This document shows positions 1-31,500 of a stretch of DNA of 61,768 nucleotides, piece after piece. Each line of letters opens with the position of its first letter. Within the stretch, counting starts at the first letter, position 1. The DNA is from a virus (taxonomy: Duplodnaviria; Caudoviricetes), in the IMG/VR virus record IMGVR_UViG_3300023179_000112, positions 1 to 61,768 of that record. One strand, 5' to 3'. A model generated the notes under the pieces. The model did not search any database. It had not been told where the DNA came from and saw nothing but the letters and a program-made list of their open reading frames with translations. The position numbers and the translations under genes are program-made.

Positions 1-65
1 TCCTTAGCCTGTTTTGTTTGTTCAGAAGCTTTTTCATCAGGGAATTTAAATTCAGTTTGATCCAT
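1..65 (-). CDS. 5' fragment of a head-module protein (possibly scaffold-related), truncated by window edge
   Basis: ATG at 65 preceded by GAGGTG; reads MDQTEFKFPDEKASEQTKQAK; directly downstream of groES. Confidence 0.55.
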   Translation of the reverse strand, partial: MDQTEFKFPDEKASEQTKQAK

Positions 66-73
66 ATTTCACC

Positions 74-436
74 TCATGCACGTTGGATACCACGGGGGTC
101 TTCGACCACCGCTTCAACGGAATCATCGTTAATAATCCTAAATTCACGGTCGTGAATTTTAAGTCTTGTGCCTGTATTAGCGCGAGTAATCACAAGATCC
201 CCCGGTTTGCACCACGGTCCTGTTGGAAAACGATTCTTATCAGCGTAAGCCATATCACCCAGTGATACGACAAAAAGCACGTTGCTTAATAACTCTTCGT
301 ACTTTAATGTTGCATCAGCTTTAATAATACCGCTGTCAAACTTGTTTTCAATTGTTGGTAGGGCGCATAAAATTTTATACCCTTTAACATGCGGCAATTG
401 TTTAGCTTTTTCCTGCGCTTCTTCTAGTTCAGTCAT
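74..436 (-). CDS. groES: Co-chaperonin GroES (Cpn10) family protein
   Basis: SGII mobile loop, VVSLG..AY, PWCKPGDLV, GT, FRIINDDSVEAVV; start moved to MTELEE (436) with GAGGA upstream. Confidence 0.85.
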   Translation of the reverse strand: MTELEEAQEKAKQLPHVKGYKILCALPTIENKFDSGIIKADATLKYEELLSNVLFVVSLGDMAYADKNRFPTGPWCKPGDLVITRANTGTRLKIHDREFRIINDDSVEAVVEDPRGIQRA

Positions 437-632
437 TCTCAAATTCCTCATACCGTTGCACAAGGTCTTGAACTTCTATTCTTGCACGGCGCAGACCTTG
501 GATAACGCCACACAAATTCCTATATTCAGCAAAATCTTTACATCCACCTTCGGCAATAGACTCACTTACTTCACGTTCGCGTTCTTTTAATTTATTAAAT
601 AAATGGTCAAGTATCATCCGTTCATTTGCCAT
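429..632 (-). CDS. Small conserved head-module hypothetical protein
   Basis: Coupled to portal stop; DFAEYRNLCGVIQGL pattern typical of the small gene after portals in such phages. Confidence 0.65.
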   Translation of the reverse strand: MANERMILDHLFNKLKEREREVSESIAEGGCKDFAEYRNLCGVIQGLRRARIEVQDLVQRYEEFEND

Positions 633-3016
633 TATTGGTTACCCCGCTTCATTGCAGATTTAAGTAAGTCGGCTTGGATCTTTTTATCATCCCGTTTATC
701 TTGGCTTTGCAGTCGAATGTTTTCTTTCTGTGCTTCAAGCTGTATACGTTCTTTCTCGTTTTGCAGTCGGCCTTGTGCAAGCGCAACGTCGGCTTGATCC
801 TTAGCAGCTTTGCGCTGCTGCTCCATACCTTTAATCTGAAGTTCTTGTTGCTGCATCTGAACCAGAGGATCTTGAGCAATTGCTTGAGCTTGTTGTTGAG
901 CAGCTTGGGCTTGATGAATTTGCAACACTTGTTGCGCTGCTTCTGCCACATATTTAGCCATTGCAAGTTCTTCGGCTTCAGAAATATCTTGCTCCGGTCC
1001 CGGTAGCGGTGCACCCACACGCTGTTCAATCTCTTGCCTATATCTAAATCCTAAATGCTCAGCAACGTGAGCCATCATTGCAGCCTGCATCTGCTGCGCC
1101 ATCGGGTTTTGCCCAATAGTCTGCATAATGCTTGGGTCTTGCAAAAAGGTCATATGCGTTGTGATATGCGCCTGATGATCCTGATAAATAAACGCTTTCA
1201 GCGGTGTGCCTTTAAGCACGTTCATATTTTCAGTGATTGGATCTTTAGGCTTTTGATCGTCAGGCAGCGGCACAAGTTTGTCAGCGTTAGGAATACCAAG
1301 TACGTCAAGCATCTGCCTGTGAAGCCGTGGGAGGTCGTAAAGCTGAGGCGCACCCTGAGCAAGCTGTAAGGCAGCTTGGTATTGCACAACCCGTTGAGCC
1401 ATTGTTGAAGCGTTAGGGTCGGACACAGGGATTACTTCAATTACATCGTAGTCCTCAGCTTTAACCTGTGGTGTGCCATCTTGGGGTACATAACTGTAAT
1501 CTGGGCCAGTGTATTCCCTGATAATTTCTTTTAGCAGCTTAAACTCTTCTTTCATCGCTGCATGGATGCGAGCTTGTACTGCACCCATTGTTTTTAACTG
1601 ACGCTCTAAGAGGGCTAGGGTGGTACCCACCGGAGCCTGACTCGACATATCGCTGACTTTCATATCAGCCATACCACTGAGTCTTCGCGCTTCTTCGGTG
1701 ATCTGATTTAACAAAGCAAGAAGAACTTGGCTTGGTTCTTTATATGGCAACGGTAAGATGTTGTCTCTGATTACACCGCCCGGAACATCCACATCTCTCC
1801 ATTCACCGGGAGCAATCGGCGTATCGTCACCTTTGATACGCAGACCTCTGGATTTCAAACCACCCGGAAGATTAGATAAAGAACCCGCGTCAACCAACTG
1901 ACGAATCAGCATGGTGCCTGCTGTGGCGTAGCCACCAATAATATGTATCAACCCAAAGCCATAAGCCCCAAAGCCGGGAACATACATGTAGTGTACAAAG
2001 TGTTGTCTTGCTGCTTTGCGTGGGTCGTCTTCTTTATAATTGCGACGAATTGCTAAAACCTTATTAGTCCCCTTATCAATGGTAATGACATAGGGCAACG
2101 GTAAATCTTCTTCGTATCCGGGCAAGTCATACTCAATATGCACTTCGTATATCTGATACCGCTCATCTTTGGTTTGCTCAACACCTTCTTTTTGTGCCTT
2201 GGCTTTTTCAATATCAGTCTGGTTAGCGTAGGGTTCACCAATATCTACGTCACAATAAAAACCGCTGACTTGCAAACGTTTAATATCATTTTTAGTTTTT
2301 CGCATCACATGCGTGAGGCGGTCTGTACGTCTGATGTTTGTTACGCCGTACGGTAGGATTATGTCCTCGGCGGGTATATAGAAGGACACCTGCCGCCCAA
2401 GTGATGGGTCGTAATAGACTTTTTTGAATGATGAACCGGCTAGCGCCACACCCCATAACGCACGTTCATGCTCAGAACGATACTCAGGCATTTTGTCTGT
2501 TAGCTGATAGTTCATATCAGCTTCAACACGCTTAGCTGCTTCTTCAATTTCAGGACTGGATGCGCCAATAATATTAGTTTTTACAGGCCCATCAGCGGGG
2601 AAAGTCTCCATAATAGATTCGCTCTGGAAGCGAATTGCAGCTTCGGTAAGCAGTGTGGAGAACACACCACAAGCACCATCCCAAGGCTCTGTCACGTTGT
2701 CATAGCGCAACCCAAGAACATCAAGCCCCTTAACATAAGTATCAACCCAATCTTTGCGGGAGTTAATGTCTGCTTCAACTAACTCCATAATGTCGCCAGC
2801 AATTTTTTGAAGCTCTGAGTCATCCATGTAGTCGGCAAGATTAGAGTCAAACTCCTCTTCTTCTTTACCGCTTTCTGGCATCAGATCAATCTCAACCCCA
2901 TCAATACCAATTGACACGCCTTCTGGATTAACAATTTCAATCTCAATAGGAGCTTCTTCGGTTGAAAGGCTGTCAATTCCTTGGGGTGCTGCGTACAGTG
3001 CTTTATCAATAGCCAT
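632..3016 (-). CDS. Portal protein
   Basis: 794 aa downstream of terL; PWDGACGV, GSSFKKVYYD, YGFGLIH motifs; Gln-rich coiled-coil C-terminus. Confidence 0.85.
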   Translation of the reverse strand: MAIDKALYAAPQGIDSLSTEEAPIEIEIVNPEGVSIGIDGVEIDLMPESGKEEEEFDSNLADYMDDSELQKIAGDIMELVEADINSRKDWVDTYVKGLDVLGLRYDNVTEPWDGACGVFSTLLTEAAIRFQSESIMETFPADGPVKTNIIGASSPEIEEAAKRVEADMNYQLTDKMPEYRSEHERALWGVALAGSSFKKVYYDPSLGRQVSFYIPAEDIILPYGVTNIRRTDRLTHVMRKTKNDIKRLQVSGFYCDVDIGEPYANQTDIEKAKAQKEGVEQTKDERYQIYEVHIEYDLPGYEEDLPLPYVITIDKGTNKVLAIRRNYKEDDPRKAARQHFVHYMYVPGFGAYGFGLIHIIGGYATAGTMLIRQLVDAGSLSNLPGGLKSRGLRIKGDDTPIAPGEWRDVDVPGGVIRDNILPLPYKEPSQVLLALLNQITEEARRLSGMADMKVSDMSSQAPVGTTLALLERQLKTMGAVQARIHAAMKEEFKLLKEIIREYTGPDYSYVPQDGTPQVKAEDYDVIEVIPVSDPNASTMAQRVVQYQAALQLAQGAPQLYDLPRLHRQMLDVLGIPNADKLVPLPDDQKPKDPITENMNVLKGTPLKAFIYQDHQAHITTHMTFLQDPSIMQTIGQNPMAQQMQAAMMAHVAEHLGFRYRQEIEQRVGAPLPGPEQDISEAEELAMAKYVAEAAQQVLQIHQAQAAQQQAQAIAQDPLVQMQQQELQIKGMEQQRKAAKDQADVALAQGRLQNEKERIQLEAQKENIRLQSQDKRDDKKIQADLLKSAMKRGNQ

Positions 3017-3024
3017 TTTTTATC

Positions 3025-3801
3025 CTAAATTAGCTTGTTATTTCCAGCTTGCGGAATATGCCCGCCCCAAGAAAATCCTAATTTTGATTTAATTTTCTGC
3101 ATGGTGCTTTCTTCTTTTTCTTTTTCTTTTACCCGAGTATATGGTGCAATATCTCTTGGGTCTAGCCTAGTCTGACGCAGTCCTGTTAGCGCGTTGTATG
3201 TTTCCCGCACATCTTTATCGGCAAATAATGTTTTTCTAAGTACTGGGTCTTTAGTTAAATCAACATTTTTAGAAGATTCAAGACCAGCCAAAGACGCTAA
3301 TATTTCGTAAAACCCAACACCAAAGTCGTTTCCTGTCATTGCTCGCATAGCAACAGGATCAAAATAAGCGTTTTTTACAAGCCCATATTTTTCTTCCAAA
3401 TACGGAAGGGATTTTATAGCATTTGATACAAACATGCTTCGTTTTACTTTACCGTCTTTATCTCCAATCAATTCATCAAATTTTTGGTTAACTGAACTAC
3501 CTTCTCCTAGATTCTGTCTGGCTAGTAAATGCTCAATCTCATGAGCAATTGTTGCGTCCGATGCACTAGGACGTACAAATACGTTTTGCTGTAGTTTGCG
3601 ATTTTCCGGTATGTTTCGCGGGTTGGAAAGCACAAATCCCGAAACATTTGAATCTTCTAGAAAAGGCATTTCCCGCACCAACAGCCCCGGAAGCCCTGCC
3701 GCAGTGGATGGGAGTTGTCGTTTTGAAATTGATGTATATTCTTCTGAACTGGGAAGTTGTTCGTCTCTAAGATATTCCCGAGTTTTGAGATCGTATTTCA
3801 T
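3025..3801 (-). CDS. Hypothetical protein with HExxH zincin-like motif
   Basis: ATIAHEIEHLL; lies between terL and portal. Confidence 0.55.
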   Translation of the reverse strand: MKYDLKTREYLRDEQLPSSEEYTSISKRQLPSTAAGLPGLLVREMPFLEDSNVSGFVLSNPRNIPENRKLQQNVFVRPSASDATIAHEIEHLLARQNLGEGSSVNQKFDELIGDKDGKVKRSMFVSNAIKSLPYLEEKYGLVKNAYFDPVAMRAMTGNDFGVGFYEILASLAGLESSKNVDLTKDPVLRKTLFADKDVRETYNALTGLRQTRLDPRDIAPYTRVKEKEKEESTMQKIKSKLGFSWGGHIPQAGNNKLI

Positions 3802-3804
3802 AAT

Positions 3805-5343
3805 TTATCCTAAATAGTAACCTCGTTTTTGCCCACGAAAGCCCCGAAAATAGCGTATATCGTCTGGTTCATCAGACGGTAGCGAAATAAACCCACCTTG
3901 CCTGAAACGCAGCAACGCTTGCGTCATTGTATCTACGTAGTCGTCATGCTCGCCAACAGGAAACGCAGCGACTTCTTCAATAACTTCCCTAGCCCACCGT
4001 GTGTCTGGTGCCCAAACTTTACCACTTGCAAATATATCAGCAACTGAATTAACACGAACGTGCTTATCGTTACCCCTTGAAGGGCTGAACTCCTGTATTG
4101 GCACCCCTACACGCCGCATTTCTTGTATAAGTGGTGCCCCTGCTGCTTTCTTTTCTATGATCACCGCATCAGGTTCATATTCCTTGTACATCTCTAAGGC
4201 GCGTTCTTTTAATACAGGAAAATTCATACGCGCTTTAAATGCATCAATTAATATTAAATTAGGTGCACCGCCATCTTCGTCGTTATACCAGATACCCCAT
4301 GTTGTGCACGCAGTATAATCTGAAGATGTTTTAGTTTCATGCGCCGTATCCCAAGATTGAATAATATATTCGCAGCGCGGTGGGTCTTCATGTTCCCACA
4401 CTCTCCACATATTACGTTGAATGACTGCTGCCGCATCACTTGTTGGCTGCTGCATATACTGCGCTTGCCAATAGCGCGGGTCCATTGCTGCTTTTTTAGC
4501 TTTTAATTGATCGAGGGGCCATTGTTCGGGCCATAATGATTTTTCATTATTTTCATTTTCGTTTAGTATTGCAGGTAATTCAACCAATTCCCACGGGTCT
4601 GATTCAGGATTTTTAATTTGATAATCAAGTAATTTACCCGTTAAGTCAATTAAACTCCAACGAGTCATAATAACTATGATCGCTCCTCCCGGCATTAACC
4701 GTTGTAGCGGTCCTGTTTGAAACCACGACCATGCTTGATCAAAAGTTAACCTTGAATTAGCTTTTATGTCTTGCTCAGAATGAGGATCGTCAATAACAAA
4801 CAAATCAGCACCACGCCCAGCCAAAGCCCCGCCCACACCAACAGCATAATATTGACCTCCGGCTCCGGTAGACCATTTTCCGGCGGCTTTTTGATCTTCT
4901 GCAAGGGCTGTTTTTGGAAAAATTTCTTGATATTCATTGGAATTTACTAAATTTTTAACACGCCGACCAAAATCTTCTGATAAAGAAGCCGTGTGCGTAC
5001 CCATAATAATTTTTTTATCTGGAAACTGCCCTAAAAACCACGCAGGAAACAAATAAGAACTGAATTCTGACTTACCCATACGCGGCGCAATATTAATAAT
5101 TACCCGTTTTTTGCGTCCTGCCACCACATCTTCAAATATTTTTGCTAGTTTTCTGTGGTGTGCGCCTTCTTTAAAACCCGGATATATGTGATGCGAAAAA
5201 GAAAGCATCGAAGAACGCGATTTTTTAAGAGATTTACGCCTATCATACTCGTCAAGAAGCGTCAAAACCTCCAGCTTTTCTGCTTTTGGTATCTGTGGCA
5301 GCATCTGCCGCAGCGCTTCAGCCTCGTAATCACTCAGATTCAA
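3805..5343 (-). CDS. terL: Terminase large subunit
   Basis: Walker A IAPRMGKS, Walker B LFVIDD, IMTRW, nuclease SWDTA and HDDYVD; probable TTG start at 5343 with GGAG upstream, overlapping terS end. Confidence 0.93.
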   Translation of the reverse strand: MNLSDYEAEALRQMLPQIPKAEKLEVLTLLDEYDRRKSLKKSRSSMLSFSHHIYPGFKEGAHHRKLAKIFEDVVAGRKKRVIINIAPRMGKSEFSSYLFPAWFLGQFPDKKIIMGTHTASLSEDFGRRVKNLVNSNEYQEIFPKTALAEDQKAAGKWSTGAGGQYYAVGVGGALAGRGADLFVIDDPHSEQDIKANSRLTFDQAWSWFQTGPLQRLMPGGAIIVIMTRWSLIDLTGKLLDYQIKNPESDPWELVELPAILNENENNEKSLWPEQWPLDQLKAKKAAMDPRYWQAQYMQQPTSDAAAVIQRNMWRVWEHEDPPRCEYIIQSWDTAHETKTSSDYTACTTWGIWYNDEDGGAPNLILIDAFKARMNFPVLKERALEMYKEYEPDAVIIEKKAAGAPLIQEMRRVGVPIQEFSPSRGNDKHVRVNSVADIFASGKVWAPDTRWAREVIEEVAAFPVGEHDDYVDTMTQALLRFRQGGFISLPSDEPDDIRYFRGFRGQKRGYYLG

Positions 5344-5896
5344 CGACTTTCTCCGTTGCAGCAACCTCAATAGCGCCCATATATTTACCAAGTTTTGCCT
5401 TGATTTTGGATTCAATCTCCTCATCAGACATCTCAACCTTTTTAACTTCTGTTCGCTCAGTAAATAGCGCTACTTCAGTCACTTTACCCAACATCTCCAA
5501 CGCTTTTAATCTGTAACGCGGGTCTGGGTGTTTTGTATCTTCTAAAATTTTAGCTACAGCGTATCCGCGCATCTGCCGAGCTTGTTCAACAAACGCCCAA
5601 TCATACGCAGTTAACATGCTTACAAGATTACGCACCGCCCTTGGCGTTGTATTTGCCAATAATTTTTCTTTTATTTTTTCTGTTGAAGCACCCGCTGCCA
5701 TTGCAGCAAACGCAAGCTGTGCGCTTTTGTGTTGTGCATTTTCTTCAACTTCTTCATCAGAAACTGCACCTATCGATTCTAAAAAATCTGCCGTGGCTAC
5801 TTGAGCATCTAGCACTTCTTGCGCAGACGCTTTGTCAACGGGCGTATATTTAGGCGCGTCGTCGTATATGGATGGTTGTATCAAATGTTCAAACAT
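5330..5896 (-). CDS. Putative terminase small subunit
   Basis: Directly upstream of terL; RLKALEMLGK helix typical of TerS; likely start MFEHL at 5896. Confidence 0.6.
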   Translation of the reverse strand: MFEHLIQPSIYDDAPKYTPVDKASAQEVLDAQVATADFLESIGAVSDEEVEENAQHKSAQLAFAAMAAGASTEKIKEKLLANTTPRAVRNLVSMLTAYDWAFVEQARQMRGYAVAKILEDTKHPDPRYRLKALEMLGKVTEVALFTERTEVKKVEMSDEEIESKIKAKLGKYMGAIEVAATEKVVESE

Positions 5897-5944
5897 GTTG
5901 AGGGAAAAGGGCACCTCGTTAATTTGGCATAGAATAATTCTTTG

Positions 5945-5974
5945 TTGACAATAATGCAAGTGTTGTAGTATATT
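5945..5974 (+). promoter_or_regulatory. Sigma70-like promoter driving the putative sRNA
   Basis: TTGACA (5945-5950), 18 nt, TATATT (5969-5974). Confidence 0.6.
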
Positions 5975-5980
5975 CTGTTT

Positions 5981-6054
5981 TGTAGCTTGGCATCCATGCT
6001 ACTCTCCTTGGTCATGTAAAGACCTTTATTCCCGGCTGCGCCGGGAATTTTTTT
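5981..6054 (+). ncRNA. Putative small RNA with anti-Shine-Dalgarno seed
   Basis: Promoter upstream, intrinsic terminator at 3' end, no plus-strand ORF, two short hairpins flanking TCTCCTT; complementary to several phage RBSs. Confidence 0.55.
6028..6054 (+). terminator. Rho-independent terminator
   Basis: ATTCCCGGC-TGC-GCCGGGAAT stem followed by a T run on the plus strand only. Confidence 0.8.
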
Positions 6055-6062
6055 GTTTGTTT

Positions 6063-6080
6063 ATGTCAAACATTAGACAT
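6063..6080 (-). promoter_or_regulatory. Operator-like motif copy (ATGTCTAATGTTTGACAT)
   Basis: Matches 7556-7573 (reverse), 8745-8762 and 23663-23680. Confidence 0.55.
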
Positions 6081-6341
6081 TATTTTAGAGAAATTTTATA
6101 AAATTTTTATAGCGTTATTATTTATTTTGATAGGGGCTGTGTTTGTAAAAATGTGGGGTGTGGGAGACAAATAGTGTCACACGAAGCCCCCCCACCTACC
6201 TGACGCACTGGGGGGATACGGGATAGGTGGGGTTGCAGACACGACGTTGCTTGATCTGTTTTACAGCAACAGCCCAGTTCTCTCAAAGTCGTCACCGTAT
6301 ACTGAAAGTGTCGAGTCTGCTCTATGACTCGATAGGTGAGC

Positions 6342-6359
6342 CGGACGGATTTCCGTCCG
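6342..6359. repeat. 18-bp palindrome copy 1 (CGGACGGATTTCCGTCCG)
   Basis: Variant copy; extended stem AGC..GCT followed by a T run, so also terminator-like. Confidence 0.85.
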
Positions 6360-6426
6360 GCTTTTTGTTTGTGTGGCTTGGCGAGACAGCGATGCTTCTC
6401 GCAGGTTTCACACTGTGTCAATCAAT

Positions 6427-6444
6427 GGGACGGATTTCCGTCCG
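6427..6444. repeat. 18-bp palindrome copy 2 (GGGACGGATTTCCGTCCG)
   Basis: Variant copy just upstream of the RBS of ORF 6457. Confidence 0.85.
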
Positions 6445-6456
6445 AAAGGAAACACC

Positions 6457-6870
6457 ATGTCTAACTACACCAACGCCGCCGCCGCAGGCTTAGCCCTTGG
6501 TCAGCAGAGTCGCCTTACTCATCAGGCAACCCTCGCCTTGTCCAAGACCTACGCGAAGTCCGAGGCGGATGTCCGTAAGCAGATGCGGGTTGACTTCATG
6601 GTCAGCTTCATCCAAGGCGCACTGGACATTGACAAAGCCAAGGCCGAAGGCGTCCTTGCAACTTCACGCGATGACCGTACCACGGCACAGCAACGTGCCT
6701 ACGCTCAAGGCTCGGACAAGTTTGCATACCACATAGTGCGGGATGCAAACGAAAGCAAAGCCAAAAGCAAAAATAGTACTGACGTTGTAACGCAGTGCAA
6801 GAAGTACGTCGATAGCAAGAGCTTGACAAAAGCTCAACTCAAGAAGCTCATTGGGCTTCTCTCAGCCTAA
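6457..6870 (+). CDS. Early hypothetical protein (basic, Ala/Lys-rich)
   Basis: AAAGGA RBS then ATG 6457; first gene of plus-strand block. Confidence 0.75.
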   Translation: MSNYTNAAAAGLALGQQSRLTHQATLALSKTYAKSEADVRKQMRVDFMVSFIQGALDIDKAKAEGVLATSRDDRTTAQQRAYAQGSDKFAYHIVRDANESKAKSKNSTDVVTQCKKYVDSKSLTKAQLKKLIGLLSA

Positions 6871-6880
6871 TCACCAACAC

Positions 6881-6898
6881 GGGACGGAATTCCGTCCC
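6881..6898. repeat. 18-bp perfect palindrome copy 3
   Basis: GGGACGGAATTCCGTCCC. Confidence 0.95.
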
Positions 6899-6919
6899 AA
6901 CAACTTTAGGAGAAATACC

Positions 6920-7119: not shown

Positions 7120-7137
7120 GGGACGGAATTCCGTCCC
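7120..7137. repeat. 18-bp perfect palindrome copy 4
   Basis: GGGACGGAATTCCGTCCC. Confidence 0.95.
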
Positions 7138-7146
7138 GCTGTCAAC

Positions 7147-9991: not shown

Positions 9992-10032
9992 ACAAGGAAC
10001 CCAAACAAACCCCAACCACAAGGAGAGTTACC

Positions 10033-10905
10033 ATGACACGTTTCAACATAGATACCTGCTCACTACTCGTTGAGTTCAACGCGTCCGTGTGGACGGCGCG
10101 TAAGCTCGACAAGAAAACAACCGACGAGGTTGTGTTCAGCAAGAACGCTGCCGCTAAAGATGCAGCACGGGTCAACAAGCACCTGCTCGCAGGTCGCAAC
10201 GAGCTGGACGTGATCCAGACTTACATTGGCAGTGTGCGTACGTTTGTGTACGAGAACACCATGCCGTGGTCTGACAATGGCTTGCGCCTGCTGCCGACGA
10301 CGTTCTTCATGGAGTTCAGCAAGCGTATGCACAACAGCGAGGACACGTTCTTCTCGTACGTTGAGGACTTCATCAGGGTCTACCCGTCACTCATCACAGC
10401 ACAAGCGATGGCGCTCGGTGACATGTTCAGGCGCGACGACTACCCCACACCTGACGAGTTACAGAATAAGTTTGCGTTCAAGGTCAACTACATGCCTGTC
10501 CCCACAGCGGGTGACTTCCGTGTGGACGTGGGCAACGACGCACAGAAAGAACTTCAGGACAAGCTCAACAAGCTCGCAGATGATCGTGTCGAGGCAGCGA
10601 TGCAAGACATACGTCAGCGACTCAAGACGCACCTCACGCGCATGCAGGACAGACTAGGTTTTGATGAGGTGGACGGCGAGAGTAAGACGCGCAAGTTTCA
10701 CGACTCGCTCGTCACGGGTGCGCTTGAGTTATGCGACATGGTCAAGCACCTCAACATCGTGGGGGACGTTGAGCTTGAGCAGGCGCGAGTAGGTCTGGCA
10801 CAAACACTTAGCGGTGTGGATGCTAAAGAATTGCGTACGAACCTCGCAGTACGTGAGGACGTGCGCAAGAACGTCGATGCACTCATCGACAAGTTGTCGT
10901 TTTAA
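10033..10905 (+). CDS. DUF3150-like protein
   Basis: WTARKLDK, NKHLL, TMPW..GLRLLP, LGDMF..DDYP pattern; position between AAA and VWA genes. Confidence 0.6.
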   Translation: MTRFNIDTCSLLVEFNASVWTARKLDKKTTDEVVFSKNAAAKDAARVNKHLLAGRNELDVIQTYIGSVRTFVYENTMPWSDNGLRLLPTTFFMEFSKRMHNSEDTFFSYVEDFIRVYPSLITAQAMALGDMFRRDDYPTPDELQNKFAFKVNYMPVPTAGDFRVDVGNDAQKELQDKLNKLADDRVEAAMQDIRQRLKTHLTRMQDRLGFDEVDGESKTRKFHDSLVTGALELCDMVKHLNIVGDVELEQARVGLAQTLSGVDAKELRTNLAVREDVRKNVDALIDKLSF

Positions 10906-10928
10906 TTTTAACCACAAGGAGAGTAGCT

Positions 10929-12113
10929 ATGTCATACACTACACTTAACCCACGTGAGCGTGTCGTTGCAGTAGGCATCGACTTCACAAAAGATATACGG
11001 TTCGCACAACTCAGTTGTGTCGCTGTGGTTGGCGACATCGAGATTTCTGACCGCATACAGTACGCTGCGACTAACGGTCGTGACGAGGTCTATAACCCTG
11101 ACTTCGTGATGGCACAGAATCGCAAGCAGATGCGATACGTCCGTGCACATGAGTTGTTACATAAACAACTCAAGCATTGTCACGCATACCGTGATGTGTG
11201 TAATAAGTATCCATACGAGACTAACGTAGCGATGGATATTGTAATTAACCTGATGATTGAGGAGATCGACCCACACTTCACGTTCGTCGAGCGTCCAACA
11301 GTTGACTTCCACATCGACCCTCACTATGCCAACTGGGGCTTCCTGCGTATTCTGCAAGATCTTATCAAGAAGGGTAATGGGGGTAATGGTAAAGGTGTAG
11401 GAGATCAACGTGGCTTCGATACGCACGAGTTCAATGAGCTTAGTGACGAAGAGCTTGACGAGCTTAAGCCCATCATCGAGGAGGCAGCACGTCAGGGTCA
11501 GTTACTTGCTGAGAAGTTAACAGCGGGTAACAAGGGTAGGGGCAAGCGTCTCAACATTCAGGCAACGCAGTCACGCACCGACTGGCGGCAGCACATGCGC
11601 GAGTTCTTCACAACGATTTGTGCAGGCGATGAACACTCACGGTTTGCACCGCCCAACAAACGCCTCGCACCACAGGGGTATTTGTTGCCATCACACTTTT
11701 CATACAACAAGGGGGACATCATCATTGCCTGTGACACATCAGTCTCTATGGCAAGACATTACGGTATGTTGTTCGGTGAGATTGCACGTATCGCTGAGGA
11801 CGTTAAGCCCGACAGCATTCGCATCTTGTGGTGGGACACATCCGTGTGTGGAGATCAGAAGTTTGAGCCACATCAGTACGCAAACATTGCAGCACTTATG
11901 AAACCTGCGGGGGGCGGCGGTACAACCCCTGACTGTGTTGTGCGGCACATCGTTGATAAGCAGTACAAACCACGTGCAGTCATCTGGCTAACCGACGGCT
12001 ATCTGTACGGCCCTGCGCCGGTGGTCAACGTGCCTGTGCTGTGGGGTGTCGTCAACAACGAGCACTTCGTTGCACCCGAAGGTAAAACCATTCACATCTA
12101 CGGGCAACTGTAA
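10929..12113 (+). CDS. HExxH metallopeptidase-like plus VWA domain protein (DUF2201-like)
   Basis: AATNG, AHELLH, MIDAS DTSVS, GGGGT, LTDG. Confidence 0.85.
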   Translation: MSYTTLNPRERVVAVGIDFTKDIRFAQLSCVAVVGDIEISDRIQYAATNGRDEVYNPDFVMAQNRKQMRYVRAHELLHKQLKHCHAYRDVCNKYPYETNVAMDIVINLMIEEIDPHFTFVERPTVDFHIDPHYANWGFLRILQDLIKKGNGGNGKGVGDQRGFDTHEFNELSDEELDELKPIIEEAARQGQLLAEKLTAGNKGRGKRLNIQATQSRTDWRQHMREFFTTICAGDEHSRFAPPNKRLAPQGYLLPSHFSYNKGDIIIACDTSVSMARHYGMLFGEIARIAEDVKPDSIRILWWDTSVCGDQKFEPHQYANIAALMKPAGGGGTTPDCVVRHIVDKQYKPRAVIWLTDGYLYGPAPVVNVPVLWGVVNNEHFVAPEGKTIHIYGQL

Positions 12114-12155: not shown

Positions 12156-12176
12156 ATTTACTTCAGGAGAGTAATC

Positions 12177-12701
12177 ATGGAAGCAAATCAAACCTTCATC
12201 AACGCCATCATCAATTCAGTAGTCAACCTCGTCATCACACGTATCGGTGAGCTTGGTCTCGTTTCAGACATACACAAACGTCTTGATGACATCGAGAAAA
12301 AAGTCGATGAGCGCAAGCCTGAGCTTGAACAATCCCTTGAGATGCTGCTGCAACAAAGCACGTGGTTCGGTGATCTCATTGCTAAACAAGTTGACATGCG
12401 TATTGAGGAGCAAGATATTGATTCAAACATGCGCAACATTGCTGAAGAAGTTATTGACGCCTGTGTCAATGATGTCGTGACACAGAAGATCGACAACTAT
12501 GACTTCTCAAGCGCTGTACACGATGCAGTCAACGACATCATTGGCGACTATGACTTCAGTGATGAGGTTTCTTCGTGCGCTAGTGACTTGGACTTGGTGT
12601 CCGACGACGGATGCCGCGAGATCTTTGAGGAGATGTTTGACGAGCGCTTCAACGACAAGCTCAAGGGTTTAACTGTTAGCGTACAACTACAAGGAGAGTA
12701 A
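12177..12701 (+). CDS. Acidic hypothetical protein
   Basis: AGGAGAG RBS; Asp/Glu-rich with YDFS repeats. Confidence 0.7.
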   Translation: MEANQTFINAIINSVVNLVITRIGELGLVSDIHKRLDDIEKKVDERKPELEQSLEMLLQQSTWFGDLIAKQVDMRIEEQDIDSNMRNIAEEVIDACVNDVVTQKIDNYDFSSAVHDAVNDIIGDYDFSDEVSSCASDLDLVSDDGCREIFEEMFDERFNDKLKGLTVSVQLQGE

Positions 12702-12703
12702 TC

Positions 12704-13075
12704 ATGGGATATAGATCAGACGTAGCGTATGTCATCAAGTTCAAAACAATCGAAGAGCGCGACGCGTACGTGACGTACATGTCAGCAAAGAATGATGAAC
12801 ACATTAAGCAAGCTTTGACAGAAGTGGACTTCTCTGACAAAGAAGATCCGATCATTACATTTAAAGCAGAAAATGTGAAATGGTACAACGGATATCCTAG
12901 TGTCGAGGCGCACAAGTTTATCTACAGCCACGCGCATGAGCTTGAGGTGGCATCGTTTCGCTTCATAGCAGTGGGTGAAGATGGACAAGAAGAATGCGAA
13001 GAAGAAGTGATAGCGTACATTGATAACCTGCACGAGTACCTTTATGCAGTACACAAAATTGCAACAAACTTTTAA
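12704..13075 (+). CDS. Hypothetical protein
   Basis: AAGGAGAG RBS; MGYRSDVAY N-terminus. Confidence 0.7.
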   Translation: MGYRSDVAYVIKFKTIEERDAYVTYMSAKNDEHIKQALTEVDFSDKEDPIITFKAENVKWYNGYPSVEAHKFIYSHAHELEVASFRFIAVGEDGQEECEEEVIAYIDNLHEYLYAVHKIATNF

Positions 13076-13092
13076 TCACAAGGAGAGTAATC

Positions 13093-14061
13093 ATGGGTTT
13101 CACAGCTAACTTCAATCAAGTATATGCCGTCCACAAGTACGAAGATGCGGATTGGTTTTTCAACAAGATCACACCCGTTAAGTCAGCCAAATGGGGTAAA
13201 GATCAACGTCCGCTTGGTCGGCGTACTGCGTGGCACTACAGGCTAGAACGTGGGCAAGACGCAGCCCACTATGACGTGTGCCTGTATCACACCAAAATGA
13301 TCCGTTACGTCAAGCCCGATCAGCATGGTTATCGTGAGGTGTACATCCGTGGGCACGACTCAAACACATCACGTTCGTTCCTCGCGCACAACATACACCA
13401 GTGCTACAACGGTCACGGTGCGCGGTTCACTGATACAAAAAACACAGTGCGCTTCGTACCGTTTTCGCCGTATACGCACGGGGCAGATTGGTCAGCACGT
13501 CTGGTCTTTGATCCCAACGGCAGACTTGTTGTGGAGCGCAGTGAGCACCTGCCCATCTATCGCGCTACGGTTACGACTGAACAGCGTGAGAAACGTGCGG
13601 AGTTACGCAAACAACTTAAGGTTATAAACATGCTCGCTGCGCTGCGCATAGACACATACCGAGCCAACGCCGAGTGGGAGGAAATAAGGGCGTATAAAGA
13701 GACGTTGGCAACACGAACTATCAACAACCTCAAACGTGACGTGCAAAGGTGTGGAAAAGACCTAAACGATGCAGACTTTGTAGCGTCTATTCTTGAGGAT
13801 CTTGGGCAGAAAGTCTTTGACAATCTGTACTCACACCACCTCACTAAAAATGACCTGATAGTCGGCAGTCGCCGGTCGATGAGTGGTCAGTATTTACGTG
13901 ACTCAGCGTCTACACTTGCGACTAATATAAAGGTTAAGCAGTTCACTGCTGCGCTTGAACGTGCGGTGATGCAGGTGTTCAGTCTGGACGGTAAAGATGG
14001 ACGTGAAGCCTATCCAGACTTCATGCCAAGCAGTGACGTGCCCAAAACTTATCTTTGGTAA
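13093..14061 (+). CDS. Hypothetical protein
   Basis: AAGGAGAG RBS, 322 aa. Confidence 0.75.
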   Translation: MGFTANFNQVYAVHKYEDADWFFNKITPVKSAKWGKDQRPLGRRTAWHYRLERGQDAAHYDVCLYHTKMIRYVKPDQHGYREVYIRGHDSNTSRSFLAHNIHQCYNGHGARFTDTKNTVRFVPFSPYTHGADWSARLVFDPNGRLVVERSEHLPIYRATVTTEQREKRAELRKQLKVINMLAALRIDTYRANAEWEEIRAYKETLATRTINNLKRDVQRCGKDLNDADFVASILEDLGQKVFDNLYSHHLTKNDLIVGSRRSMSGQYLRDSASTLATNIKVKQFTAALERAVMQVFSLDGKDGREAYPDFMPSSDVPKTYLW

Positions 14062-23653: not shown

Positions 23654-23680
23654 AAAAAAAGCATGTATAATTTTTGACAT
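23643..23680 (+). promoter_or_regulatory. Sigma70 promoter overlapped by operator-like motif
   Basis: TTGCAC 23643-23648, 17 nt, TATAAT 23666-23671; motif ATGTATAATTTTTGACAT 23663-23680. Confidence 0.7.
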
Positions 23681-23698
23681 AACACAAGGAGAGTTGAT

Positions 23699-24097
23699 AT
23701 GGATACCGTACCAATGGATAAATTGGCCCGCGTGTACTTAAAAATACGTACGCGGATTCAAGAGCTTACGAAACAATACGAGTCTGAGATTGAAGATCTC
23801 AAGTCGCAGCAAGACGAAATCAAAGCTGCGATGAAAGATCATCTCATGGCGCTCGGCAGTAAATCGGTGAAAACCGATCAAGGCACTGTGATCTTGACAA
23901 CCAAGACACGGTACTTCACGCAAGACTGGGACGCTTTCAAAACTTTTGTGGTGGAGAATGACGCGCTTGATCTTTATGAAAAGCGTATTCATCAAACCAA
24001 CATGGCTAAGTTTTTGGAAGACAACCCTTCGCTTGTACCCCCCGGTTTGAACTCAGATAAAGAGTTCGATATTTCTGTAAGGAAACCAACCAAATGA
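23699..24097 (+). CDS. Conserved replication-module hypothetical protein
   Basis: AAGGAGAG RBS; coiled coil plus DWDAF..PPGL. Confidence 0.75.
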   Translation: MDTVPMDKLARVYLKIRTRIQELTKQYESEIEDLKSQQDEIKAAMKDHLMALGSKSVKTDQGTVILTTKTRYFTQDWDAFKTFVVENDALDLYEKRIHQTNMAKFLEDNPSLVPPGLNSDKEFDISVRKPTK

Positions 24098-28351: not shown

Positions 28352-28535
28352 TATTGCTTTTCCGTGGGAGCATGTCCCACTAGGAGGCGGGTTTTTTGTC
28401 CCTACACTCAATCCACAACGTACTATAGAGAAAGCACATAGGGCAGCTATGACTGCCCGTGTGTTTCACTTCAAGAGCATACCCTGCATCATTAACGGGA
28501 AACTTGGCGTCTATTTTCAGCGGTTGCGGCGATGA
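28314..28535 (+). CDS. Small hypothetical protein
   Basis: FPWEHVPLGGGFFVP; last gene of the plus block, 3' overlap with giant gene. Confidence 0.55.
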   Translation: MQSESQSQKSRTDIAFPWEHVPLGGGFFVPTLNPQRTIEKAHRAAMTARVFHFKSIPCIINGKLGVYFQRLRR

Positions 28536-31500
28536 ACTTCTGCGCGTAGCCGATACGTGCTTGCCGTATGCGATCAAGTGTCTCGCGCTTTTGTTGGGGA
28601 GACATGTCCTTACGCTCACGCACATCACGCTCCATCTGTGCGTACTCCCCCATCTGTTGACGGAAGCTACCTGCCGAAGATGCCAGACCTAAAATCTGTC
28701 TGTTCTCTTTAACAAATTCTTGAACGTCACTAGCATCCCCGCGCCGTGTGAGTTCTTTGTAAGTGCGCTGCCGCTGCTCAATGTTGCTGACCACCTGATA
28801 GGCGTAGTTGATCAAGCCTTGAGCGTCACGGGGTTGGAACAAACCACCCACGATAGGCATATCGCTTGCTCGCATCTCAGGATCAGCTTTTCCTGGCTTC
28901 TCCAATACAGTGTTACCCATGCTTGAGATTGCAAGACCAAGAGGGCCAAAGTATCCACGAACGAGATAATCAAGCTGTATGGGGGACAAGCCGTACTCTT
29001 TGCCACCCACCGTAAAGCTAGTCAGTGAGCTAAGCATCTTGGCAACTTCTGACGTATTAGAGCGCATGCGCTGCGAGGGGATTAGCGCTTCTTCTCGTTC
29101 ACTCTCTATGCCGCGCCCTGAGAAGAACGAGTAGTTCGTAGCAACCTCAAGCGCTGGCTTAATAGCTTGTGGAATAAGCCCCGGCATCGTGTTACCCAAG
29201 ATACTCTTCAGCGCAGGGAACACTTGCCCTACTTCAGCTTTACCATCTGCCAGATGCACTATCATCTCAGGCAGTGCTTTGAACAACACGCCAACTTCAA
29301 ACGGGATGGGGATACGGAAAGGCTCACTGAACCCCGGTATATAGACAAAGAAGTTGTTGTACTTCTCATCTGGGTTAGCATTCTTATACGCCTCATCATC
29401 TTGCATCATGGCTGCGTACAGCACGGTCATACCTGCAAGCATCATGCCGCGTGTCCAGAACTTCTTGCGGACTTTTAACTGCTGATCAAACGGCATTTTG
29501 CCAGCAAACCCCGAACGGTACAGCACGTCCAGACCTTGAATCTGTGCGTTCAAGAACGGCACCATCATTGACAGCATCATCACAGACGGCGACAGCCCAC
29601 GACGGTTAAAGTTCATAGACTCAAGCGTAGCCAGCGTAGCTTCCATCTCTGACATACCTTGTTTGATAAAGCTGTTGTACAGCACAACGCGAGTCGATGC
29701 GTCGCCCTGTATTGCCAACGTGTCAAGCTTAGCCAGCTTAGTCGCCCACCCTTCTTTACCGCTAGCAATGTCACGAAGAATCAAACTTAAATCTTCAGAG
29801 GTGCCGGTAAAGACTTGCCCACCAAGCACACCACGCTCGCGTAGTTCTTTCTCGCTTTCACTCTTACCCTGCCGCATCTTGCGAAGTTCTTTAAGCGATG
29901 ACAGCACAGGGGTAAAGTTTCCTCCGGTTGTTAAAGCCGCAGACATTGAATCGCGGAACAACTGACGGAAGGCATACAACGGGTTGCGCGTAATGAACAA
30001 GCGCAACACTCTGGAAGGAATATTAAATAGCTTAACAACTTGAGGTATGGTGGCAGAAACCCCTTCAAGTCCTTTCACTAACAAGTCAGCAGGAACACCA
30101 AGCGTTTCTGTATCGATCACGGCGTACATAGGTTCACCGCGTTCTTTAAAGCGAATGACGTTAGCCCCCGCAGGACCGTCACCTTTCCCAATCTTAGCCA
30201 CAGGCATAGCGCTCGTACCAAGACTGCGTAACGTGTAGGCTACATTTTTTGTGGCTAGATTTCGCATAGCAAAATCAACGAACATGTTGGTGTTCTGCAC
30301 AGAGCTGGTAAAGAAGTCCAGAATCTTTGTGTTACCACCAACAAGTTGATCTAAGTACGGCTGATCTTTTAAGTTGCCAATACGAATGGGAGAGATCTCA
30401 CCACCAAGCATAAGCTGGACGGTGCCATTCTGTACCCGATAGAACGGAATGTAGTCGTTAGTGCGCAACAGCCTATCTTCATCAATTTTACTGATAGCGC
30501 CCGTTTGCACAGCAAACTTTACTAGGTTTCTGTTGTACTCGTTATAGAGCGTACGTGCCTTATCAAAAGCTTTTTTAATCTCTGGCTGAGACTCAACGTA
30601 ACGCTTTAGCCCTACTAAGTCAGACAGTTTGACGCTAGGATCAAAGTTCAGCGTATCAAGCCCAACACGTTCTGCACGAATAGCCGCCATCCAAGACGTA
30701 AACATTTTGTTAGCAGAGTCAACGCCCATGTCGGGCACTTCTTTAAGTGCTGCTGCAACATCTTTTAGAGATACTGTGCCTCCACTGCGCACAATGAACT
30801 CTTCACGTCCGTCTGCACGTTTCTTTTTCTCTAAGATTAACGCACCGTTGTTTACAACTTCAGCCGTAAAATTATTGCGTTGATCGTGCATTCGTAAATA
30901 AGACATCATTTGCGTAGCAGCAAGTGAGTCTTTCATTTGTGCAGCAATACGTTCAAGCGGATCAAAGCGATCAATATATTTGGTACGAAACGTCATGCCT
31001 GTGTTACCACCAAAGATTTTGTCAAACGTACTGGGCGGTGAGCCTGTAATTTGATTTATCACCGTAGCGTAGTTTGCAGGCATATTAGATGGGAACGCAT
31101 CTTTGCTTCTACGAAACACAACCTGTCCGTCAGCGTCACGATAAGCGCCGGGAGTACCGGATTTTATTACACGTCGTGAACGGCTTAGTAAGTAGTAAAT
31201 ATCAGCAGGCTTAAGAGCACTGTAACGCCCAAGCCCAAGCACATCACGCAACACTTGCCGCAATGCACCAATCATTTCTTGCACAAAACGTTTAACCGCA
31301 GCAACTGTAGATTCTGTAGCGCGAGCTTCTTCTACGTGTGCAATTAACTCACGTATAGCGGCGCGTTGTTGACCAATAATAGAAGTGCCAACACGTTGCA
31401 GATTAAGAATGGTGCCATATACTTCGTCGTGTACGCCCATTTCTTTAGCAAGACCAATAACGCCTCCCGGTTGAGAATCAACACGGAAAACAAGATCATC

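Follow-up and report, generated by a model that had tools for sequence, protein, structure and literature searches.

A conserved small RNA unit predicted in uncultured tailed phages is complementary to, and varies together with, the initiation regions of phage genes

Results

The divergent gap and the predicted small RNA unit

We analysed one full IMG/VR virus record of 61,768 bases (CheckV 96%), referred to here as the window, and a predicted small RNA (sRNA) unit on its plus strand at positions 5981-6055, whose core is complementary to a stereotyped initiation region at six genes of the same phage. Minus-strand genes, including those for portal, large terminase (TerL) and structural proteins, occupy positions 1-5896 and 28492-61691. 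The plus-strand genes occupy 6457-28351 and encode an AAA ATPase, a DUF3150-like protein, a VWA-like DUF2201 protein, DNA polymerase, exonuclease, helicase and primase. The sRNA unit is situated inside the divergent gap 5897-6456, between the first minus-strand gene, p188 (ATG at 5896), which encodes a protein of 188 amino acids (aa), and the first early gene.

A first-pass annotation of this DNA had described a promoter, a unit devoid of any open reading frame (ORF), a terminator functioning on the plus strand only and an antisense core, and all of these were found where it had placed them (Table 1). The promoter is of the sigma70 type and agrees with the consensus at 11 of 12 positions; here, as throughout this work, promoters and 5' ends are consensus predictions. 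The 75-nucleotide (nt) RNA has a predicted folding energy of -28.7 kcal/mol (z = -4.5). The part of the core that reads UCUCCUU (6003-6009) is predicted to be single-stranded between two hairpins, designated SL1 and SL2, with a probability of being unpaired of 1.0 in the window RNA. The predicted elements thus give the unit its own promoter and a Rho-independent terminator bounding a short non-coding transcript, which is characteristic of the class of trans-encoded base-pairing sRNAs, and both elements are kept on the same strand in relatives.

A search for expression data found seven sequencing runs (six recorded as RNA, one guessed). Freshwater metatranscriptome contigs from four runs of one study (90-95% alike) cover 5300-6043, 5300-6168, 5300-6258 and 5300-6463; these contigs are unstranded, are without true ends, and may reflect DNA carry-over.

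Complementarity to six gene starts in the window

Six gene starts in the window share a motif, AGGAGAGT-N4-ATG, of which the core is the exact reverse complement. Six matches compare with 0.02 expected, and none of 100 shuffles reached six. For AAGGAGAGTA with at most one mismatch there were eight matches vs. 2.59 expected, a number reached by 1 of 100 shuffles. All six copies of the motif are on the plus strand, 13 nt before the ATGs of called genes at 10033, 10929, 12177, 12704, 13093 and 23699, and none of them precedes a minus-strand (structural) gene, in agreement with the earlier observation that the motif was not seen before late structural genes. The complement of the core takes the form CAAGGAGAGTAGC at 10915-10927, CAAGGAGAGTA at 12690 and 13079, CAAGGAGAGT at 10019 and 23685, and AGGAGAGTA at 12165.

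When the 84 called initiation regions were scored by RNAduplex against a 19-nt core, the six motif genes were the top six, with energies of -20.9 to -26.4 kcal/mol; the seventh-best value was -19.3 and the median -10.1 kcal/mol. The claim that the core is complementary to six gene starts beyond chance was thereby upheld. The predicted targets lie 4-18 kb from the sRNA unit, with another promoter between (Table 1).

Table 1. Coordinates of the predicted sRNA unit, its predicted targets and adjacent promoters in the window
Feature	Position	Strand	Details
Predicted sigma70-type promoter of the sRNA	5945-5974	+	-35 TTGACA 5945-5950; 18-nt spacer; -10 TATATT 5969-5974
Predicted sRNA, ~74-75 nt, ORF-less on +	5981-6055	+	5' end predicted from the -10
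5' stem-loop SL1 (GUAGC/GCUAC stem)	5982-6002	+	Loop carries CCAU, complement of AUGG
Core CCAUGCUACUCUCCUUG, complementary to initiation regions	5994-6010	+	DNA reads CCATGCTACTCTCCTTG
Second hairpin SL2 (GGUC/GACC)	6010-6024	+	Sequence variable among relatives
Intrinsic terminator	6028-6055	+ only	Hairpin 6028-6048 with 9 pairs (6 G-C) and 3-nt loop; T run TTTTTTGTTT
Predicted target, DUF3150-like gene (10033-10905)	10019-10035	+	Duplex -20.9 kcal/mol
Predicted target, VWA-like DUF2201 gene (10929-12113)	10915-10931	+	13 nt perfectly complementary; duplex -26.4 kcal/mol, best of 84
Predicted target, 174-aa gene (12177-12701)	12164-12179	+	Duplex -22.2 kcal/mol
Predicted target, 123-aa gene (12704-13075)	12690-12706	+	Duplex -25.8 kcal/mol
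Predicted target, 322-aa gene (13093-14061)	13079-13095	+	Duplex -25.6 kcal/mol
Predicted target, 132-aa gene (23699-24097; phrog_13900)	23685-23701	+	Duplex -24.6 kcal/mol; most consistently retained across lineages
Predicted promoter of the packaging/structural operon	5933-5961	-	-35 TTGCAT 5961-5956; 17 nt; -10 TATTCT 5938-5933; consensus inference
Predicted early promoter P2	6074-6102	+	TAGACA-17-TATAAA just downstream of the sRNA terminator; TTGACA-17-TATAAT in relatives; context, outside the RNA

Conservation of the unit and its fold across the clade

An IMG/VR scan anchored on TerL yielded 80 loci out of at least 599 matching stretches, and p188 was found in 78 of the 80. Anchoring on p188 provided 73 sequences with enough upstream DNA. 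A hairpin followed by a run of at least six T was present between p188 and the early promoter in 70 of these 73 related IMG/VR loci, and the 70 sequences with the unit correspond to 58 unique ones; L049, L050 and L053 had been excluded earlier because they have no six-T run at the terminator.

The intergenic block could be aligned by blastn in 11 of the 80 TerL-anchored loci, at 65-97% identity. An alignment of 11 sequences, consisting of the window and 10 of these loci, showed invariance of the -35 TTGAC, a TAnnnT -10 (spacing 17-18 nt), the SL1 stem, CTCTCCT, the terminator stem and the T run; loops, SL2 and spacers were variable. The SL1 stem begins approximately 7 nt past the -10 in this alignment. 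Its five pairs are kept in nine of nine sequences, one of them as a G-U pair, and other lineages have different self-complementary sequences at the SL1 position. A covariance model (R1) built from nine of the aligned sequences matched 16 sequences strongly, the window among them (64-95 bits), and some 30 others weakly. With few exceptions the weak matches are located some 600-750 nt upstream of TerL on the opposite strand, syntenic with the window unit and in the same relative orientation, in the group with 66-76% TerL identity. In a comparison with Rfam, proposed by the first-pass annotation as a check, no family reached its gathering threshold anywhere in the window.

We folded 53 unique predicted RNAs of 67-103 nt, their 5' ends being predicted from the -10. 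Left out of the 58 unique sequences were L022, L051, L060 and L070, where the -10 pattern was missed, and L045, which has a terminator without a six-T run. A common layout of 5' stem-loop, unpaired UCUCC, second hairpin and terminator was found in 53 of 53. The minimum free energy structure had three hairpins in 44 RNAs, four in seven and two in two. The CUCC block was unpaired with a probability of at least 0.6 in all 53, at least 0.8 in 44 and at least 0.9 in 33; its median was 0.92, vs. a median of 0.44 over all positions of the folded RNAs. The sequences of the hairpins and of the terminator stem differ wholly between lineages and their self-complementarity is kept, while TCTCC is the only near-invariant internal block among 38 diverse members of the family. 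With CTCTCCT invariant and CUCC unpaired, the RNA presents the accessible and conserved seed expected of the sRNA class. RNAalifold applied within lineage A recovered SL1 and the terminator, with scant variation and a double change in 1 of 13 pairs.

Seed and initiation regions change together

Fourteen related records were fetched and oriented, their genes were called by one simple rule, and each seed was compared with every initiation region. In each lineage a subset of the plus-strand genes carries a stereotyped initiation region of its own, and the RNA of that lineage contains the complement of that version (Table 2).

Table 2. Versions of the gene-start motif and of the sRNA seed
Lineage or record	Gene-start motif	Reverse complement of the seed	Remarks
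Lineage A	CAAGGAGAGTAnnnATGG	CAAGGAGAGTAGC(T)ATGGA	
Lineage B	AGGAGAAAGCAATG	CAGGGAGAAAGCAAGT	
Lineage C	AAGGAGAAGCAAATG	GAAGGAGAAGCAAATG	15 nt exact; 2-3 genes per genome
G010	AAGGAGCATACA	GAAGGAGACATACAAAC	4 genes
G012	AAGGAGAACAACATG	GAAGGAGAGACAACATG	Three genes exact, a fourth with one mismatch

Matrices of own versus other seeds were block-diagonal. For each genome the CTCC core was held fixed and the flanks were shuffled 500 times, using a gapped score. Own seeds beat the flank-shuffled seeds in all 14 genomes; in 13 genomes 0-8 of the 500 shuffles equalled the score of the own seed, and in G013 29 of 500 did so. With a contiguous-match test, 12 of 14 genomes had P ≤0.05 by one measure or more; the test was not significant in G010 and G012, where inspection revealed pairing with 1-nt bulges; the gapped test was adopted after the data of these two genomes had been inspected. 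Genomes of the same lineage are not independent, and a fair count is approximately five independent versions.

The switch can be followed in orthologous genes. The start of the VWA gene reads ..AGGAGAGTAGCTATG in the window vs. ..AGGAGAAGCAAATG in its G013 ortholog, which is the version of that lineage. The 132-aa gene carries its own lineage's version in the window, G001, G013, G014 and G010, and does not in G002; that is, the gene and four of the five orthologs examined have the stereotyped version of their own lineage. Complementarity to targets above chance, maintained by covariation, is a further property of the sRNA class, and it was seen here in the window and across 14 genomes with at least five versions. 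The covariation that the first-pass annotation had suggested looking for in related phages was found, and its proposal of a trans-acting antisense RNA from the plus strand gains support from the conserved unit and from seeds that covary across lineages, orthologs included.

Two observations concern individual target starts. Within 23675-23690, and at the orthologous sites in G001, G002 and G013, TTGACAT or a near variant lies immediately upstream of the 132-aa gene's stereotyped initiation region, where it may serve as an internal promoter or an operator half-site. The reverse complement of the VWA start region (10865-10944, minus strand, and in L094, L095 and L096) scores 27-28 bits over the full length of the sRNA model, and the sRNA and the VWA initiation region may share ancestry.

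The opposite strand

The minus strand opposite the unit contains an ORF at 5881-6015 (44/38 aa), and the first-pass annotation had allowed that the core might be only the ribosome-binding site of its 38-aa form (ATG at 5997). This alternative fails, as neither the ORF nor its ATG is conserved: only 20 of the 58 unique relatives have an ATG at a workable distance, and the ORFs that it opens run from 1 to more than 34 codons. Lineage A keeps the ATG, but indels that are not multiples of three produce ORFs of 6, 8, 13 or more than 33 codons. Among the other lineages, one has the ATG followed by TAA, lineage B is without the ATG and lineage C keeps it, and no conserved peptide was found among the minus-strand ORFs of the relatives. 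On the minus strand the hairpin is preceded by an A run, and in essentially all relatives a T run follows it on the plus strand only.

The predicted minus-strand promoter of the packaging and structural operon overlaps the sRNA promoter back to back. It lies downstream of the unit, and the operon mRNA should therefore not contain the unit. In 11 relatives the TGCAA and TA..CT positions of this promoter (TTGCAy-17-TAnnCT) are invariant and the 17-nt spacing is free of indels. In other lineages (L018-L082, e.g. L036, L043 and L065) the sRNA and the packaging operon are predicted to use one symmetric bidirectional promoter, TTGCxx-17-GTGTAYAnT-17-xxGCAA, which has a shared -10 region and is situated some 45 nt before p188 begins. 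Many of the sRNAs outside lineage A open with a GCAA-tetraloop hairpin and, as read from the sequence, so does the operon leader. The initiation region of p188 (5897-5920, minus strand) forms a conserved hairpin, GAGGTGCCCCTTTCCCTC. Since this hairpin ends 2-3 nt before the ATG, the Shine-Dalgarno (SD)-like GAGG of p188 is paired with a CCTC in cis, and p188 may be a separately controlled start.

Neighbouring features and cultured relatives

The -35 of the early promoter P2 falls in a palindrome, TGTCAAnnnnTTGACA. Downstream of P2 a long early leader (6108-6372, plus strand) has a folding energy of -100 kcal/mol (z -4.1), and a block GTGGxGTxGGAGACAAATAGTGTC as well as a long-range C-rich/G-rich pair recur in the early leaders of relatives. 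A 16-bp palindrome, GGACGGA(A/T)TTCCGTCC, is present in four copies by the first early genes (6343-6362, 6428-6447, 6882-6901 and 7121-7140), the first of which forms a terminator-like hairpin at 6338-6363; the four copies could be operators, hairpin terminators or processing sites. In the early leader of record G002 (L007, ~3230-3340), an 18-nt unit, GCGTTGCGTGGTTTAGGC, is repeated six times in tandem downstream of the early promoter. At the far end of the window, the minus-strand block is headed by a single ORF of 3086 aa (28492-37752; 3223 aa in G001).

The nearest cultured relatives by large terminase are the Pelagibacter phages HTVC027P/023P, 023Pt_psg01, DSL-LC04 and some cyanophages, at ~45-52% amino-acid identity. 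Blastn of 5300-6900 against cultured phages gave no DNA similarity, and tblastn with the p188 protein gave no match. HTVC027P has another layout upstream of TerL, with no obvious counterpart of the sRNA. At its divergent junction (L117 560-1110, gp34-gp35) this otherwise A+T-rich phage has a G+C-rich stretch of ~400 nt free of annotated genes, which may be a structured RNA. TerL relatives were also found on contigs of metagenome-assembled genomes labelled Gammaproteobacteria (88% over a fragment), Fluviibacter, Chitinophagales and others, and we name no host because these labels are too mixed.

Discussion

The predicted unit is a conserved gene that recurs as a constant element in a large clade of uncultured tailed phages. 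Besides this conservation, the sequences show its fold, the strand on which its terminator lies, its complementarity to gene starts and the covariation of its seed with those starts. We consider it probable that 5981-6055 on the plus strand is the gene for a member of a trans-acting sRNA family that blocks initiation by covering SD, spacer and AUG in a defined set of mRNAs of the same phage; its transcription, the repression and the timing are inferred. Host RNA polymerase would start at the sigma70-type promoter, which overlaps the divergent promoter of the packaging and structural operon, and would stop at the intrinsic terminator, releasing an RNA with a 5' stem-loop, single-stranded UCUCCUU and flanks, a second hairpin, a terminator hairpin and a U tail. 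Together with the 3' arm and the loop of SL1, the single-stranded stretch would pair with the SD, the spacer and the AUG. In the window this would affect the DUF3150-like and VWA-like genes, three genes of unknown function at 12177-14061 and the 132-aa gene at 23699. Such pairing would occlude binding of the 30S subunit and perhaps invite cleavage by an RNase, with less synthesis of these early or middle proteins as the outcome.

Among the proposed roles, a temporal switch agrees best with the arrangement of the promoters. In every lineage the predicted promoter of the sRNA overlaps that of the late operon, and for this reason the output of sRNA is probably linked to the switch from early to late expression. 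The other roles offered by the first-pass annotation, a lysogeny-like quiescence or immunity to superinfection, found no support: a non-exhaustive scan of 20 window proteins, which have replication, packaging and unknown functions, gave no match to an integrase or repressor.

Several observations count against repression by base pairing, or against its timing. The sRNA promoter is near consensus, and its transcription may set in as soon as infection begins. Full pairing in lineage A requires SL1 to open, and any RNA bearing CUCC matches SD sites to some degree. RNAalifold on a MAFFT alignment of 38 diverse members returned no consensus pairs, and the structural support across lineages consequently comes from folds of individual sequences. 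In G001 the exact AGGAGAGT-N4-ATG is present at one gene only, and the best contiguous matches are 9-10 nt. The initiation regions of G013 fit the seeds of its sister lineage better than its own (~26 vs. 18.2). Finally, an energy-based matrix was noisier than the match-based ones; it was block-diagonal for lineages A and C, and the rows of lineage B were not best with their own seeds, G+C-rich SL2 bases inside the seeds being a confounder of this matrix.

The alternatives each start from a part of the same evidence. The RNA might be real and act in another manner, either as a general anti-SD mimic directed at host mRNAs or at the translation machinery, or by binding a protein, with the phage match as a by-product. 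It fits this idea that the sole block kept family-wide, TCTCC, is the core of any anti-SD sequence, and that the unit has a weak likeness (26.2 bits) to the bacterial CU-rich sRNA anti-hemB. We nevertheless find it unlikely, given that flanking bases outside the generic SD/anti-SD pairing covary with the phage spacer and AUG in at least five lineages, and that flank-shuffled seeds with an unchanged core do far worse. Function might instead reside in the minus strand, where an extra copy of this kind of initiation region would serve a short leader ORF or bring ribosomes to the head of the packaging operon, and would on that account co-evolve with the copies at the gene starts. The minus strand of lineage A does read AAGGAGAGTAGC(T)ATGGAC with ideal spacing, the 38-codon ORF of the window ends 13 nt beyond the start of the next gene, and the ATG is also kept in lineage C relatives. 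Against these points stand the scarcity of a usable ATG (just 20 of the 58 unique relatives) with no conserved peptide, the T run after the hairpin on the plus strand only in essentially all relatives, and the conserved minus-strand promoter downstream of the element, with none seen to its right; we judge this explanation improbable.

A phage protein could also read the motif as DNA or RNA, being a switch factor or a RegB/RegA-like protein, in which case the inverted copy would be a control site of the late promoter. In all lineages the copy is ~60-75 bp upstream of the predicted start of the late operon, a typical distance for an activator, and T4 phage proteins can recognise extended SD motifs of early genes (PMC3014915). 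We give this reading little credence: it leaves unexplained why a promoter on one strand, two hairpins and a terminator flank a copy that is always unpaired, and why the gene motif is locked to the SD-AUG register, and a decoy would need the same sequence, not its complement. A terminated leader or insulator with no base-pairing role, whose terminator shields the early promoter or is antiterminated as in lambda PR'-tR', would account for a strong promoter followed ~75 nt later by a terminator just upstream of early genes in the same direction. A separate, near-consensus and conserved early promoter is nonetheless situated between the terminator and these genes, and a leader of this kind would leave unexplained why the CUCC block is conserved in an unpaired state and why it covaries with initiation regions; we regard this account as very improbable.

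Returning to the trans-acting sRNA, a wider reading that we hold only tentatively is that it constitutes a clade-wide RNA counterpart of T4 RegA/RegB: a core sRNA, from a promoter overlapping that of the late operon, would silence a private, stereotyped initiation code of the early and middle genes and so run part of the temporal programme of these abundant phages, and code and reader would drift together and be orthogonal in each lineage. If this is true, orthogonal pairs could stop cross-regulation between co-infecting relatives, or let relatives interfere with each other.

To our knowledge, very few phage-encoded sRNAs are understood, and most of them come from temperate enterobacterial phages and have host genes or just one phage gene as targets. 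In the present case sequence by itself gives a testable circuit of a conserved RNA, a defined seed and a defined target set, together with five or more natural compensatory versions of the RNA/initiation-region pair. If the proposed function is true, it represents an RNA-based translational shut-off of a whole regulon within a lytic phage programme, explains the oddly uniform initiation regions on subsets of phage genes, and offers orthogonal pairs of sRNA and initiation region for synthetic control of translation. In the annotation of viral metagenomes, it can serve as a non-coding marker for this clade, conserved in the gap where packaging operon and early genes diverge.

Comparison with known systems

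Lambda OOP and P22 sar are short phage transcripts with intrinsic terminators that pair with phage mRNA and overlap their target gene in the opposite orientation. Unlike these, the RNA described here has no conserved gene or predicted transcript opposite to it, and its matches lie elsewhere in the genome. We rejected the cis-antisense class on the grounds that the opposite ORF is unconserved (ATG in 20 of 58) and the predicted minus-strand promoter is downstream of the unit.

In phages P1 and P7, c4 RNA is processed out of the leader of the very operon that it controls; its single target is the icd/ant region, and it has its role in the immunity of a temperate phage. In contrast, our unit is neither encoded in nor processed from the leader of a repressed operon; it has its own promoter and terminator, is 4-18 kb from several predicted targets, and no lysogeny genes were seen among the 20 window proteins scanned. 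The likeness is in the principle: c4 is phage-encoded, blocks translation of a phage mRNA through complementarity to its ribosome-binding region, and forms RNA-target pairs that differ between related phages (PMC12197685). SviR, from the PLE satellite of Vibrio cholerae, is likewise a mobile-element sRNA that has a promoter of its own and ends at an intrinsic terminator. Its seeds are conserved, it pairs near the 5' untranslated regions and ribosome-binding sites of several targets, and cognate pairing of alleles and targets has been predicted across relatives (10.1101/2022.04.08.487710). SviR differs in being ~210 nt long and satellite-encoded, and in regulating transcripts of both the satellite and the helper phage with two seeds. 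The RNA described here belongs to a lytic-looking phage, would act on that phage's own genes, and has one seed directed against SD, spacer and AUG in a stereotyped initiation region.

In regulatory logic the predicted sRNA resembles the T4 RegB endoribonuclease and the RegA translational repressor, which shut off a set of early or middle genes post-transcriptionally through the sequence of the initiation region; strong RegB sites have the extended SD consensus GGAGRAYARAA (PMC3014915). RegB and RegA are proteins, whereas the reader here would be an RNA whose specificity is complementarity and can be traced as covariation.

The best Rfam match to 5993-6054 (plus strand) was RF02837, anti-hemB (Burkholderia RNA 7), which shares a CU-rich anti-SD block, a second hairpin and a terminator of the CCCGGC/GCCGGG type. 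Membership in this family was rejected: the score of 26.2 bits compares with a gathering threshold of 49.5, the first 5' helix has non-standard pairs and the second is absent. The CU block is in a hairpin loop in the anti-hemB model and between hairpins in our sRNA.

A literature search, mostly of abstracts, returned no phage sRNA complementary to an initiation region common to several of the phage's own genes, and nothing on sRNAs in the HTVC023P/027P group. None of the words sRNA, non-coding, intergenic or antisense occurs in a paper on the transcriptome of HTVC027P (PMC12753301). By analogy, the predicted RNA is closest to c4 and SviR in principle and to T4 RegB/RegA in logic, and is a member of none of these systems. 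It suggests an arrangement in which a base-pairing sRNA would act as the regulon-wide reader of a phage's own stereotyped initiation code.

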